From Ostreococcus lucimarinus (lineage: Eukaryota), in the NCBI GenBank assembly GCA_000092065.1, contig CP000592.1: DNA of 64,000 nt; one strand, 5' to 3'. The translations under genes were made by a program, and so were the position numbers. Under the pieces are notes generated by a model, which ran no database searches, was not told where the DNA came from, and saw nothing but the letters and a program-made list of their open reading frames with translations. Shown piece after piece: positions 1,044 through 51,659 of the stretch; position 1 is the stretch's first letter, and each line of letters starts with the position of its first letter.

Positions 1044-3501
1044 ATGTACTACGGCGCGCCGTCGAAGCGGGTGCGCGGACGCGCGCGCGACGACGACGCG
1101 CGACGACGCGCGAACGAACGCGCGAACGGGACGAGCGTCGACTGACCGAGATACGAACGACGCGCAGGGCGTCCCGACGGACATCGCGAGCGCGCTGCAC
1201 GCGCACGCGAGCGAAGCGCTCTCGCCCGACGACGCCGACGGCGCGGCGGGAGATTTCGCGGAGACGCAGCGGCTGCGCGACGCGGCGACGACGAGCGCGA
1301 ACGAAGGGAGCGAAGACGTCGAGGCGTTCGCGGAGTATTATCGCGCGCTGCGAGCGTTGGAGTCGAGGATACCGATATCCGAGGGCGCGGGACACGCGAG
1401 GGTGGAGTTTGAGTGGTTCGACGTCGGTCGAGGGGTGAAGGCGGCGCCGGGGACGATCGCGTCGAGGGACGCGGAGTACGAAAAGTGCGCGGTGTTGTAC
1501 AATTACGCGGCGGCGTTGTCCAGGCGAGGGGCGCGAGAGGCGAACGCGGGAAGGTCGGATGAGGGGATAAAGCGCGCGTGTGCGGCGTTTCAGCAGTCCG
1601 CGGGAGCGTTTGAGATGTTGGCGGATGTGAGCGAGCGAAAGCTCGGGCAGTTTGCGGCGAGCGCCGACGTCGGGCGAGATTTTTGTGAGACGATGATCAA
1701 GCTTCACTTGGGGCAAGCGCAAGAGTGCTTTTACGAAAAGGCAAAGGCAAAGAAGAGCAGTCACGCTATAGTCTCGAAGTTGGCGCAACAGGCGCGAGTG
1801 TACTACGAAGACGCGTTGGAGGGGGCGGGGAAATTGGTTGGGTACTTGGACGAAGACTTGACGCAATACTTGAACTTCAAGCGCGCGTACGTCGGTGCGG
1901 AGGCGTTTCGACTCGCCGGAAAGATCGTGTTAGACGCCGACGAAACAAACGTCGGACCCGCTGTCGCGAGATTGCGTCAAGCGCGAGATTTACTCGCGCA
2001 GACGATTCGAGACGCGCGCGTCGTGTCGAGCGACGCTGAACTCGAGCGAACGAAAAAATTTATAGACGAAGTCATCGCGCCCGAACTCAAGGCTGTCGAG
2101 CGCGATAACGAGTGCGTGTACATGGAACGCGTGCCAAAGTTTGAGGATTTGCCCGCGCTCGCGGCAGCGAACATGGTGAAACCAATTCAACCGCCCGCCG
2201 AACATCTCTCTCCAGTCGACGTGAAGCTCTTCCAAAGCATCGTTCCCGACAGCGGCGCCAAGGCACTGAGTCGGTACACCGAGATGGTGGATGAATTGAT
2301 TCGAAACGAAACCGACACGCTCGCTATGGCTAGTGACGAAGCCCGCGTGGCTTTGCGCGAGATGGAGCTTCCCGAAACTCTCATCGCTTTGTCGACGCCC
2401 GTACCGCTCGGCGGCGATTTAGAAGAACGAGTCGGCGCATTCCGCTCATCCGGGGGCGCGGGTGCGTTATCGGCAAGTCTCTCTCGCGTGGACGAGCTCA
2501 ATCGTCAATGCTCAAATATCGTGCAAACAATTCGTGAGACTTTGGACACAGAGGCCGCGGAAGATGCCGCATCGCGCGCTGTCCACGGCGAAGGCGCGTG
2601 GCGTCGGGAAGCGTCGTCGTCCAAAAATAGAGAAATGATGCAAGTGTTGAAGCGCTACGAGGTCGATTTAGAAGTCGCGACGAAGAGCGATACCCAACTT
2701 AAAGAACGCCTTGAAGGCGCTGGAGGCGTGCTGGAGGTGCTTTCTGAGGAGAACATCAAGAATAACGCGCCGACGTTGACTCAACCCTTGGCGCTCTTGG
2801 AGGATGACGCCTCCGTGGCGTCGGAAATGCAAGCAACTTTGGAAGATCTCGAAGCCATCGGAAACGAGCGAGCTGGGATCGAAGAGTTGATGCGTAAGAC
2901 AAAGTCGGAAGACAACATCCTCACAAAGCTCATGGCGCAATCGGGCGAAAGTCTCGACGCTCTTTTCAAAGAAGAGATGAAGAAATACGACCAAAGTAAG
3001 GATGGCGTTATGCTCAACATTTCAAAGCAAGCGGACGCGCTCTCTCGTTTGCGCACGTTGCACGAAAAGTTCGTCACGATTTACGACATTGAAGCACTAC
3101 GACGGGATGTTGAATCGCACGAGCATAGCGTACGCCACGCATTGTCTATTGTCGGCGATTTGCGCTCAGGAATGGAGCAAGGCGTTCGATTCTATTCGGG
3201 ATTTCTTGACGCAGCGCGTCGCACGCTGACGGACGTTCAAGAGTACGCGAGTGCGCGTCGACTGGAAAAAGAAGCGATCGCCGAAGAGCTGCGCGTTCAA
3301 AAAGCACGCGCTGACGAGCGTGCGGCGCAGATGGCTACTCAAATGAACCAGATGCACTTTCACCAGCCGCCGCCTCCGCCGCAACAGTACTACCATCCTT
3401 CGGCCCCCGCGTATCCTTCGCCCGCCTATGGCGCTCAACCCCCGCCTCCTCATTGGCAAAACCAGCCAGGAAGGTATGCGAACTGGGAAAATCAATCTTG
3501 A
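1044..3501 (+). CDS. BRO1-domain protein (ALIX/PDCD6IP/Bro1-like) with a Pro/Tyr-rich C-terminus; proposed exons 1044..1070 and 1168..3501
   Basis: The BRO1 domain aligns to ALIX (CAVLYNYAAALS, GAFEMLAD, KLHLGQAQECFYEKA). The C-terminal PPPPPQQYYHPSAPAYPSPAYGAQPPPP resembles the ALIX proline-rich region. The ORF-track ATG at 931 gives a non-BRO1 N-terminus. A 27-nt first exon (ATG at 1044, donor GTGCGC at 1071, CTGAC at 1142, CAG at 1165-1167) joins in frame and yields MYYGAPSKR|GVPTDIASAL, which matches the ALIX N-terminus LKKTSEVDLAKPL. Confidence 0.8.
1071..1167 (+). other. Predicted intron 1 of the BRO1 gene (97 nt)
   Basis: Donor GTGCGC, branch-point CTGAC at 1142-1146, acceptor CAG at 1165-1167. 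Exon 2 starts in frame with the long ORF. Confidence 0.5.
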
Positions 3502-3591
3502 TTACGAAACGCAGCATTGTACAATGTTTACAGTCTCTACGAATCTCGTCTAAAAAAGCTAGCGTAAAGTAGCGTTGTGAGAATCTCATCT

Positions 3592-49890: not shown

Positions 49891-50123
49891 CGCGACGCGA
49901 TGTGCGGGCGCGGCCTCAATCGACGGGTCGTGACTCAGCGACGAGGGACTCGAGGGGGACCACCGCGACTTCGAACGGCCCGCGAACGCCTCGAGCGGCA
50001 CTTCTCGAAGCGCGTCATCGCCGCAGCGACCTCGAATCGCTCGCCGACGACCGCGTGCGCCTCGACGAATCGGTCGGTGACGCGAATTTACGCGCGCGTG
50101 CGACGGACCGAACGACCGACGCC

Positions 50124-51659
50124 ATGCGCGAGGTGATCTCCATTCACATCGGCCAAGCCGGGATCCAGACGGGGAACTCGTGCTGGGAGCTGTACTGCCT
50201 CGAACACGGGATCCAGCCGGAGTGCGTCGAGCGAGCGGCGACGCGATGGACGCGATGACGCGCGATGGATGACCCGGAACGCGCGTCGACGACGATGCGT
50301 TCCATTCATTCATTCATTCGCGCGCGCAGACGCGCGTTTTTGACTGTTGGAAATTTGAACGGGACGACGACGCGGGACTGACGGATTCTTATGATTTTTT
50401 CGCGATACCGCAGTGGCCAGATGCCCTCGGACGCGTCCATCGGCGCGGAAGATGATTCTTTCAACACGTTCTTCTCCGAGACCGGCGCCGGGAAGCACGT
50501 GCCGCGATGCATCTTTCTCGATCTCGAGCCGACGGTGATCGACGAGGTGCGCACGGGGGCGTACCGTCAGCTGTTCCACCCCGAGCAGTTGATCTCGGGC
50601 AAGGAAGACGCCGCGAATAACTTTGCGCGCGGTCACTACACGATCGGCAAGGAAATCGTCGACGTCGCGCTCGATCGCATTCGTAAGTTGGCGGACAACT
50701 GCACGGGTTTGCAAGGCTTTTTGGTCTTCAACGCCGTCGGCGGCGGCACGGGGTCGGGTCTCGGCTCGTTGCTCCTCGAACGCTTGTCCGTGGATTACGG
50801 CAAAAAGTCCAAGCTCGGGTTCACCATCTACCCGTCCCCCGCGGTGTCCACCGCGGTGGTCGAGCCGTACAACTCTGTGCTGTCCACGCACGCGCTGCTC
50901 GAGCACACCGACGTCTCGGTGATGTTGGACAACGAAGCCGTGTACGACATCTGCCGCAAGTCTTTGGACATCGAGCGCCCGACGTACACCAACTTGAACC
51001 GCCTGCTCGCGCAAGTCATCTCTTCGCTCACCGCGTCTCTGCGATTCGACGGCGCGTTGAACGTCGACGTCACCGAGTTCCAAACCAACTTGGTGCCGTA
51101 CCCGCGCATTCACTTCATGTTGTCAAGCTACGCCCCGGTGATCTCCGCCGAGAAGGCGTACCACGAGCAGCTGTCCGTCGCGGAAATCACCGCCAGCGCG
51201 TTCGAACCGGCGAGCATGATGGCCAAGTGCGACCCGCGTCACGGCAAGTACATGGCGTGCTGCTTGATGTACCGCGGCGACGTCGTGCCCAAGGACGTCA
51301 ACGCCGCCGTGGCCAACATCAAGACGAAGCGCACGATTCAATTCGTCGATTGGTCCCCGACCGGGTTCAAGTGCGGGATCAACTACCAACCGCCGACCGT
51401 CGTGCCGGGTGGCGATCTCGCCAAGGTGCAACGCGCCGTGTGCATGATTTCCAACTCGACGGCGATCGCCGAAGTGTTTTCGCGACTCGACCACAAGTTT
51501 GATTTGATGTACGGGAAGCGCGCGTTCGTGCATTGGTACGTCGGCGAGGGCATGGAGGAGGGCGAGTTCTCAGAGGCGCGGGAGGATCTCGCCGCGCTTG
51601 AGAAGGATTATGAAGAAGTCGGTGCGAGTTCGGTATCCGATTTTCCGGACGAATTTTGA
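50124..51659 (+). CDS. TUA: Alpha-tubulin; exons 50124..50221 and 50414..51659 (447 aa)
   Basis: [32 protein letters not shown]|DGQMPSD.., a full alpha-tubulin. The intron has donor GTGCGT at 50222, CTGAC at 50377 and acceptor CAG at 50411-50413. It splits codon Asp33 as GA|T. Confidence 0.95.

Follow-up and report, generated by a model that had tools for sequence, protein, structure and literature searches.

Constrained splice signals in ten introns of an Ostreococcus lucimarinus window: a local sample of a published genome-wide pattern

The introns of Ostreococcus lucimarinus have already been described on the scale of the genome. In a set of 319 EST-confirmed introns from outside chromosome 2, Irimia & Roy (PLoS Genet 2008, PMC2483917) found a strong donor, GTGCGTG (4.8 bits), the branch motif ACTGAC in 87% of the introns and GACTGACG in 66.5%, a preference for CGCAG at the 3' end, and a branch-to-AG distance of 20-35 nt. 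The introns of chromosome 2 are degenerate by comparison (4.6% shared hexamer, 1.9-bit donor), yet they are spliced in the same cell. The likeness of the constrained introns to those of hemiascomycete yeasts was pointed out in that same work, in which snRNAs were found only as single copies in O. tauri. A relative, Micromonas, was later reported to use the donor AG/GTGCGT and the branch motif NCTGAC, the latter placed 43-52 nt upstream and accompanied by a pyrimidine tract (Verhelst et al., GBE 2013, PMC3879977). O. tauri also has Ot-CDsno95, an intronic box C/D snoRNA whose expression has been shown in O. tauri only, with 25S G2201 as its predicted target and a host gene given as "unknown" (Bousquet et al., NAR Genom Bioinform 2020, PMC7671301).

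We compared with these systems a stretch of 64,000 nucleotides of O. lucimarinus DNA, referred to here as the window. An earlier sequence-only reading had listed nine introns in it and ascribed to all of them one stereotyped architecture. Each of these nine intervals starts with GT and ends with AG on the + strand, and their coordinates are right. The list was said to hold all the definable introns, which is not the case: a tenth one, at 25636-25826, shares their signals.

The BRO1 intron (1071-1167, 97 nt) begins with GTGCGC, carries CGACTGACC with the branch A 22 nt from the 3' end, and closes with GCGCAG; four other species have orthologs of it at this position. The ACP gene has two introns. 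The first (14634-14938, 305 nt; GTGCGC, GGACTGACG, 27 nt, GCGCAG) has an ortholog in one relative, and its spliced protein is XP_001420610.1. The second (15026-15183, 158 nt) starts with GTGCGTG, in tandem as GTGCGTGCG, followed by TGACTGACT at 36 nt and GCGCAG, and again the spliced protein matches the deposited one. The polyubiquitin intron is the longest (22361-22713, 353 nt; GTGCGG, TGACTGACG, 33 nt) and ends in CGATAG, a TAG acceptor that is conserved in two sister species; its spliced protein is ABO98905.1. Two introns fall in a gene labelled "SYCP2-like", a label for which we found no Pfam support. Intron 1 is the tenth intron (191 nt; GTGCGT, AGACTGACG, 35 nt, GTATAG), and intron 2 (25965-26082, 118 nt; GTGCGT, TGACTGACTGACT, 22 nt, GCTCAG), whose removal gives XP_001420614.1, is present in two relatives and absent from a third. 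The ABC1-kinase (ABC1K) intron (30734-30972, 239 nt) has GTAAGT, AAACTGACC at 26 nt and TCACAG, with orthologs in five relatives that carry GTAAGT or GTACGT. The QCR8 intron (33525-33769, 245 nt; GTGCGT, TGACTGACG, 31 nt, ACGCAG) gives XP_001420616.1 when spliced out. The XMAP215/MOR1 intron (38285-38413, 129 nt) again has a tandem GTGCGTG (GTGCGTGCG), with CGACTGACA at 32 nt, ACGCAG, and orthologs on three contigs. The alpha-tubulin intron (50222-50413, 192 nt; GTGCGT, GGACTGACG, 32 nt, CCGCAG; spliced protein XP_001420620.1) occurs in one relative and is missing from another. All ten are on the + strand.

The claim of a GTGCG donor in eight of the nine listed introns was borne out. The tighter form GTGCG[T/C] fits seven: GTGCGT in five (ACP intron 2, SYCP2-like, QCR8, XMAP215 and alpha-tubulin) and GTGCGC in two (BRO1 and ACP intron 1), leaving out the GTGCGG of ubiquitin and the GTAAGT of ABC1K. 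CTGAC does occur near the 3' splice site of every one of the nine, always as ACTGAC and always as a single functional-looking copy upstream of a YAG, although its distance is not fixed; the branch A stands in a narrow band, 22-36 nt before the 3' end. Similarly, the supposedly uniform CAG acceptor is used by eight, with TAG in ubiquitin. When the tenth intron is counted in, GTGCG is found in 9/10 (ABC1K being the exception) and GTGCGT in 6/10, ACTGAC in 10/10, GACTGAC in 9/10, GACTGACG in 5/10 and CGCAG in 6/10, over lengths of 97 to 353 nt and with the branch-A distance still 22-36 nt. If the roughly 10 nt next to the branch point are disregarded, the acceptor is in all ten the first YAG encountered. 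A polypyrimidine tract is slight or absent in several introns, and the T fraction is as low as 4-7% in the tails of BRO1, ACP intron 1 and XMAP215.

Such agreement is far beyond chance. At the frequency of CTGAC in the window, 4.8e-4 per position, a band of 18 nt would hold it in about 0.9% of introns, and all nine would do so with a probability of about 3e-19. Of the GT dinucleotides, 3.6% continue as GTGCG; for eight donors out of nine this comes to about 2e-11. Of the 13 + strand copies of ACTGAC, 11 are inside introns, and GACTGAC is present 11 times on the + strand and not once on the - strand. We found no minus-strand introns: the four ACTGAC copies there all lie in long ORFs or lack a suitably placed YAG, and each of the minus-strand genes that we examined is one uninterrupted ORF; four of them have no Pfam match, and the domains are complete in those that do. 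Two candidates on closer look were set aside. A copy of GACTGACG at 15601, in the ACP-HPAT spacer, has no YAG within 45 nt and no upstream donor and is unconserved in two relatives, and it was treated as a chance occurrence. A missing exon was suspected in the Elongin-C-like gene (23997-24371), which turned out to be a complete single ORF.

All ten introns have GT...AG termini and a YUNAY-type branch motif with its A about 18-40 nt upstream of the 3' splice site, for which the pairing to the O. tauri U2 GUAGUA was worked out by hand; their removal restores an open frame with homology to a conserved protein. Neither the U12-type donor [AG]TATCCTT nor the U12-type branch TCCTTAAC at 10-15 nt from the 3' splice site is seen among the window introns. 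The nine listed introns are thus very probably real introns of the U2-type (major) spliceosome, with unusually rigid signals. The strong GTGCGTG-type donor, the ACTGAC/GACTGACG branch motif and the CGCAG preference also place the window introns, with a high degree of confidence, in the described "constrained" class, which extends over all of the genome apart from one half of chromosome 2. The O. tauri snoRNA that is syntenic to a copy in the window, described below, sits on chromosome 12, and the contig to which the window belongs measures 538,963 bp; both observations suggest a chromosome other than chromosome 2. The organism and the signals are the same as in the published non-chromosome-2 set (PMC2483917), and there is no difference in kind; the window is a local sample of it.

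The junctions can be supported by evidence other than the motifs. Spliced translations reproduce exactly the deposited O. lucimarinus CCE9901 proteins for ACP (both introns), ubiquitin, SYCP2-like, QCR8 and alpha-tubulin, and in the tubulin, ubiquitin, ACP and QCR8 genes the junctions restore universally conserved peptide sequence. Those of ABC1K, XMAP215 and BRO1 are kept in other species. Since six junctions give the deposited proteins exactly and others are conserved, the junction calls are independent of the motifs. All ten intron positions are conserved in other species. The 37 orthologous introns compared at the 10 positions have as donors GTGCG in 24, GTACG in 8 and GTAAG in 5, branch motifs CTGAC in 31 and CTAAC in 3, and acceptors CAG in 26 and TAG in 11. 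The branch A of these introns is 22-41 nt from the 3' end, with a single outlier at 10 nt. On syntenic contigs of other Ostreococcus-like species, positions and signals are kept while the intron bodies diverge; a six-species alignment of the QCR8 intron bodies reaches only 52% column identity, and what is conserved in it is the signals.

The comparison with Micromonas shows both kinship and a difference. On a Micromonas-like contig (L007) the XMAP215 intron is retained and its donor is GTGCGTG; it has CTGAG, though, at 39 nt and with a tract rich in C and T behind it, whereas Ostreococcus introns have distances of 22-37 nt and often no pyrimidine tract. The parallel with the TACTAAC yeasts, which the sequence-only reading had also drawn, is apt and is the same one made in PMC2483917. 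In both, the genome is poor in introns and the donor and branch motif hardly vary; the introns are biased towards the 5' side, behind first exons that are very short, and the branch site is strong enough to do without a pyrimidine tract. The sequences themselves are different: GTATGT...TACTAAC...YAG in the yeasts, GTGCGT with (G)ACTGAC(G) in Ostreococcus, where ACUGAC pairs to U2 via a G-U wobble, unlike the TACTAAC system. The window has one copy of TACTAAC, outside the introns, and no GTATGT donor among the introns. The resemblance is convergent, a functional analogy and not a homologous one.

The deposited models differ from ours at two of the junctions, 1071-1167 and 25636-25826, for which comparative evidence is the basis. 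In the BRO1 gene, a coding micro-exon of nine codons (MYYGAPSKR, 1044-1070, + strand) precedes the intron, and four other species have kept its homolog, M-(F)Y-G-x-R-x-K-R. The GenBank model XP_001420607.1 reads instead from an ATG at 931 and does not contain this exon; the interval is dispensable for an open frame, as the ORF 931-3501 runs through it, and the match to the Pfam BRO1 profile begins only at position 12, residue 4 of exon 2. Judging from these comparisons, the deposited BRO1/ALIX homolog appears to be an unspliced read-through with a wrong N-terminus. In the "SYCP2-like" gene, an unannotated micro-exon of eight codons (MTATSALA, 25612-25635, + strand) stands ahead of the tenth intron, with in-frame ATG micro-exons at the same place in three relatives. 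The annotated Met at 25881 is a Leu in all three of them, so that XP_001420614.1 seems to lack its first exon and to begin at a non-conserved Met. The expectation that the signals would reveal micro-exons invisible to ORF scanning was therefore correct for both genes.

The one GTAAGT intron in the window has a passenger. The ABC1K gene codes for an ABC1-family kinase (PF03109); the 840-residue model that we built is not present as such in the protein collection. Within its intron, the segment 30786-30893 (+ strand) agrees with the published O. tauri Ot-CDsno95 at 98 of 103 positions and is nearly invariant in a four-species alignment. It has a C box of the RUGAUGA type near the 5' end (ATGATGA at 30791), a D box near the 3' end (CTGA at 30887) and flanking TGC/GCA. 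Rfam gave sub-threshold C/D-box matches only (E 4-9) on this intron; the identification was made from the O. tauri snoRNA catalogue. The segment is the ortholog of Ot-CDsno95, which is likewise intronic, in the syntenic gene ostta12g01220 on chromosome 12, and has identical C and D boxes. The host is here an ABC1-family kinase, in contrast to the "unknown" of PMC7671301.

How such signals could be read may be proposed from established splicing biology and from the snRNAs of O. tauri (a species other than O. lucimarinus), which are canonical: U1 AUACUUACCUG, U2 GUAGUA, U6 ACAGAGA and U5 loop CUUUUAC (PMC7671301 Supplementary File 2). A canonical U1 would pair with (G)/GUGCGU at -1, +1, +2, +5 and +6; the contact at +3 would be a G-U wobble, and +4 would be mismatched. 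The GUAGUA of U2 would pair with ACUGAC and leave the branch A bulged, and the acceptor would be the nearest downstream YAG that is over about 10 nt away from that A, here at 22-36 nt. The rigidity would then be a property of the cis signals under purifying selection, which would keep the signals and their spacing while the intron bodies are scrambled across species. The cause favoured in the literature, and the probable one here, is selection for efficient and unambiguous splicing in an intron-poor genome with the core machinery unchanged.

The sequence-only reading had attributed the pattern to a streamlined spliceosome, and had suggested to look for matching constraints in the U2 snRNA and to compile the signals genome-wide. 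The compilation exists in the 2008 data; the U2 of O. tauri is the canonical one, and the attribution is unsupported. A streamlined or co-evolved spliceosome, with stricter RNA or protein components matching GUGCGU and GACUGACG, does have its attractions, as reduced spliceosomes are frequent in lineages with few introns and rigid signals (general knowledge; also bioRxiv 10.1101/2022.06.08.495308), and the C at donor +4 and the G's flanking the branch motif, conserved across species, have no counterpart in the canonical snRNA sequences of O. tauri. Because pairing to snRNA leaves these bases unexplained, something else must contribute, either protein recognition or GC mutation bias, and there is room for adapted protein factors. 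We nevertheless consider such a spliceosome unlikely. The four O. tauri snRNAs are canonical; snRNA genes turned up in that species as single copies only (PMC2483917); the splicing of degenerate chromosome-2 introns in the same cell argues against an intrinsically stricter machinery; and sister species tolerate GTACG, GTAAG, CTAAC, CTGAT and CTCAT at the same positions. The window has no snRNA, tRNA or other RNA gene by Rfam at gathering threshold and tRNA scan, and is therefore itself silent on the machinery. A metagenome search for an Ostreococcus U1 with the pattern GATCANGAAGGN{12,40}ATTGCAC returned, among the matches listed, canonical U1 genes on AT-richer contigs (27-50% GC) and chance matches, and none on a GC-rich Ostreococcus-like contig.

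Selection on the signals is also to be preferred over descent from one mobile element family, as with the introners of Micromonas, which we hold to be very improbable. The IE-C introners of Micromonas RCC299 do carry the GACTGACG branch motif (PMC3879977), and there is weak low-complexity similarity between some intron bodies (BRO1 vs QCR8, z 4.7); however, an all-against-all local alignment of the ten bodies stripped of their signals gave a mean z of 0.76, the best matches being CG-rich low-complexity runs, so that multi-copy body similarity is not found among them. Their lengths are also widely spread, and the positions are common to species whose proteins are only 50-70% identical, which makes the introns old. 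We reject this origin, and with it the notion, practically excluded, that boundaries drawn by motif made the pattern circular or that it arose by chance in 60% GC sequence: GTGCG is common in the window (261 copies over both strands), the earlier reader worked without tools and the BRO1 frame stays open unspliced, but the six exact junctions, the restored peptides, the ten conserved positions, the near confinement of ACTGAC to introns and chance values of about 1e-11 to 1e-19 all tell against it.

The intron architecture is thus correctly described and not new, having been published genome-wide for O. lucimarinus in 2008 and for relatives in 2013. The additions over the published set are the cross-species conservation at ten specific positions and the two junctions missing from the deposited annotation. 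Why the constraint exists despite canonical snRNAs and the degenerate introns of chromosome 2 is a known question, which the window alone does not advance. It is conceivable, if rather doubtful, that the +4 C and the G's flanking ACUGAC, conserved genus-wide, are read by lineage-specific changes in SF1/BBP, U1C or Prp8; if true, the Mamiellophyceae would have a protein-tuned "strict" mode of splicing for most of the genome and a relaxed mode for chromosome 2. As a discovery the pattern carries little weight, and it is a textbook example of "few introns, strong signals". In practice it is useful for annotation: the signals are specific enough to locate tiny first exons, and in this window they exposed two N-termini that appear to be wrong.

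All nine intervals that the sequence-only reading had proposed as introns are bounded by a 5' GT and a 3' AG on the + strand, and its description of them is correct apart from the ubiquitin intron. The donor is GTGCGT in ACP intron 2, the 'SYCP2-like' gene, QCR8, XMAP215 and alpha-tubulin, GTGCGC in BRO1 and ACP intron 1, GTGCGG in ubiquitin, and GTAAGT in the ABC1-family kinase gene (ABC1K; 30734-30972), the only window intron with that donor. The proposed GTGCG[T/C] donor thus holds for every GTGCG intron except that of ubiquitin, which also ends in TAG where the other eight have the expected CAG. 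All nine contain ACTGAC, whose presumed branch A lies 22-36 nt before the intron 3' end; the distance is short, as had been claimed, but it occupies a narrow band rather than a fixed position. The window is 60.2% G+C, with about 36 tightly packed genes; it contains precisely as many G as C (19,260 each) and more A (13,106) than T (12,374).

Chance offers a poor account of this regularity. CTGAC has a frequency of 4.8e-4 per position, both strands counted, giving about 0.9% per intron for a copy in an 18-nt band and about 3e-19 for nine of nine; likewise, 3.6% of GT dinucleotides continue as GTGCG, which puts eight of nine at a probability of about 2e-11. Of the 13 ACTGAC copies on the + strand, 11 are intronic, and GACTGAC has 11 copies there and none on the - strand of the window. 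Nor were the junctions defined in a circular way. Once spliced, ACP (both introns), ubiquitin, the 'SYCP2-like' gene, QCR8 and alpha-tubulin translate into the deposited proteins without a single mismatch (XP_001420610.1, ABO98905.1, XP_001420614.1, XP_001420616.1 and XP_001420620.1), and for tubulin, ubiquitin, ACP and QCR8 the joined exons recover universally conserved peptides. Exact protein matches also assign the window to O. lucimarinus CCE9901.

At BRO1 the annotation is contrary: XP_001420607.1 (856 aa) is an uninterrupted ORF, 931-3498, that runs through 1071-1167. The same micro-exon (M-[F]Y-G-x-R-x-K-R) is present in contigs from four other species. Behind it come a donor, either GTGCGT or GTACGT, then a branch motif (CTGAC, CTGAT or, in one, CTCAT) and YAG, and exon 2 there opens with the conserved '...TD[IVL]A..L' that begins the BRO1 domain. 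The Pfam BRO1 alignment begins at profile position 12, on residue 4 of exon 2, so that about nine residues, not 79, would fit upstream. The comparison argues that the 97-nt intron is real, and supports the view that the BRO1/ALIX model is an unspliced read-through of a gene with a 9-codon first exon at 1044-1070.

A motif scan of both strands of the window recovered the nine introns and added a tenth, so the set had been incomplete. This 191-nt intron (25636-25826, +) reads GTGCGT ... AGACTGACG ... 35 nt ... TATAG, and its removal puts an ATG at 25612 (+) in frame with the 'SYCP2-like' ORF that opens exactly at 25827, yielding an 8-codon first exon, MTATSALA, missing from the annotation. Three other Ostreococcus-like contigs likewise have an ATG micro-exon of 8-11 codons, a GTGCG donor, CTGAC and YAG, and all three have Leu in place of Met 25881, where the deposited XP_001420614.1 starts. 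From these micro-exons and the Leu, the true start is very probably 25612, and XP_001420614.1 very probably truncated at its N-terminus. Tandem GTGCGTGCG is frequent at donors (15026-15034, 38285-38293 and 25636-25649; also L002 9969 and L006 22144 in related contigs), and offers a choice of two 5' splice sites spaced by 4 nt, of which only the upstream one preserves frame; any use of the downstream site would cause a frameshift that may lead to NMD. The pair at 25636 and 25644 reads GTGCGTCGGTGCGG.

One further perfect motif, GACTGACG at 15601-15608 (+) in the ACP-HPAT spacer, has no donor and no YAG within 45 nt, shows no conservation in L001 or L002, and is probably either fortuitous or decayed. 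The minus-strand genes of the window yielded no introns. The intron-bearing genes are all on the + strand (8/8), vs about 17 of the roughly 36 genes on the - strand (one-sided hypergeometric p ~0.002, post hoc). The related contigs provide no independent test of this bias because they are syntenic, and it may be chance.

The ABC1K intron carries something besides splice signals. Across four species the block 30786-30893 (+) hardly varies, whereas the remaining intron sequence diverges; ATGATGA at 30791 (+) forms its C box and CTGA at 30887 (+) its D box, and its Rfam matches are of the C/D-box kind, all sub-threshold. It is identical at 98 of 103 nt to Ot-CDsno95, an experimentally detected, intronic, uncapped box C/D snoRNA from O. 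tauri chromosome 12 whose predicted methylation target is 25S G2201 (PMC7671301). The block is a conserved box C/D snoRNA and the ortholog of Ot-CDsno95. In each of the six species compared, its host intron has kept a donor that departs from the consensus, either GTAAGT or GTACGT.

The comparison rested on syntenic contigs with orthologs at about 37-70% protein identity, and covered 37 orthologous introns at ten positions. Donors were GTGCG (24), GTACG (8) and GTAAG (5, all in ABC1K); branch cores were CTGAC (31), CTAAC (3), CTGAT, CTCAT and CTGAG (one each); acceptors were CAG (26) and TAG (11). The branch A lay 22-41 nt from the 3' end, apart from a single case at 10 nt. Conservation between species does not extend to the intron bodies: in a six-species alignment of the QCR8 intron, mean column identity is 52% and the splice signals alone are conserved. 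The XMAP215 intron is unlike the others just past its branch motif, where 7 nt (ACTGAC-AGCTGG; window 38378-38389, L005 and L006) are conserved in three species. Some introns are missing altogether, that of alpha-tubulin in L005 (22240-22602), 'SYCP2-like' intron 2 in L004 (2427 onward), and those of QCR8 and ABC1K in L007 (7083-7286 and 4057-4776), the most distant contig compared (69% G+C, Micromonas-like), which therefore lacks the intronic snoRNA site as well. Two small single-exon genes under the 150-aa ORF cut-off are also conserved in related contigs, one for a CP12-like protein with the C-terminus DPMDALC..ECKAFD (516-821, +), the other for a protein of about 99 aa without assigned function (47754-48053, +).

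As to origin and cause, the window introns are not copies of introners, the mobile elements known in Micromonas, since the ten share no body similarity beyond CG-rich low complexity (mean z 0.76). All ten belong to the U2 type and take as acceptor the earliest YAG lying more than about 10 nt beyond the branch A, which is in keeping with 3' splice-site scanning; in XMAP215, a CAG just 3 nt past the branch A is passed over. In several introns the stretch from branch to acceptor lacks a pyrimidine tract (T fraction 4-7% in BRO1, ACP intron 1 and XMAP215), a likeness to yeast, where a strong branch site is enough.

The pattern itself is already known. Irimia and Roy (PLoS Genet 2008) described it in a section entitled 'The Peculiar Case of Ostreococcus', where 319 EST-confirmed O. 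lucimarinus introns outside chromosome 2 have ACTGAC in 87.2%, GACTGACG in 66.5% and an atypical consensus donor, GTGCGTG, of 4.8 bits; introns outside chromosome 2 favour CGCAG at the 3' end and show a broad peak of 20-35 nt from branch to AG (PMC2483917). For the canonical introns of Micromonas, Verhelst et al. (GBE 2013) reported AG|GTGCGT and NCTGAC; they also give GACTGACG as the Ostreococcus branch sequence (PMC3879977). The stereotyped architecture and the yeast analogy are both correct and both present in Irimia and Roy, who regarded the likeness of Ostreococcus to the hemiascomycete yeasts as a case of convergence among intron-poor genomes (PMC2483917).

A streamlined spliceosome, which had been suggested as the cause, has both published work and the snRNA sequences against it. 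Irimia and Roy argued that the constraint is not a sign of a changed spliceosome, because degenerate chromosome-2 introns share the same cell and O. tauri yielded only single snRNA genes (PMC2483917). The snRNAs published for O. tauri have canonical sequences (PMC7671301, Supplementary File 2): the U1 5' end is ATACTTACCTG, U2 contains ...AAGTGTAGTATCTGTTC, U6 has ACAGAGA and the U5 loop is CCTTTTAC. When these are paired by hand with the O. lucimarinus introns, U1 would pair with GUGCGU at +1, +2, +5 and +6, with a wobble at +3 and a mismatch at +4, and U2 GUAGUA would pair with ACUGAC through one G-U wobble plus a bulged A; the conserved G preceding ACUGAC would face an A, and the G following it would only wobble. 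This canonical pattern, derived with O. tauri snRNAs, indicates that the RNA machinery has not been altered to suit the splice signals. The +4 C and the flanking G's are possibly read by protein factors, or possibly reflect GC bias under relaxed pairing. The observation is confirmed and its interpretation partly supported; what it still offers is two annotation corrections, one more intron and a position for a snoRNA already known.
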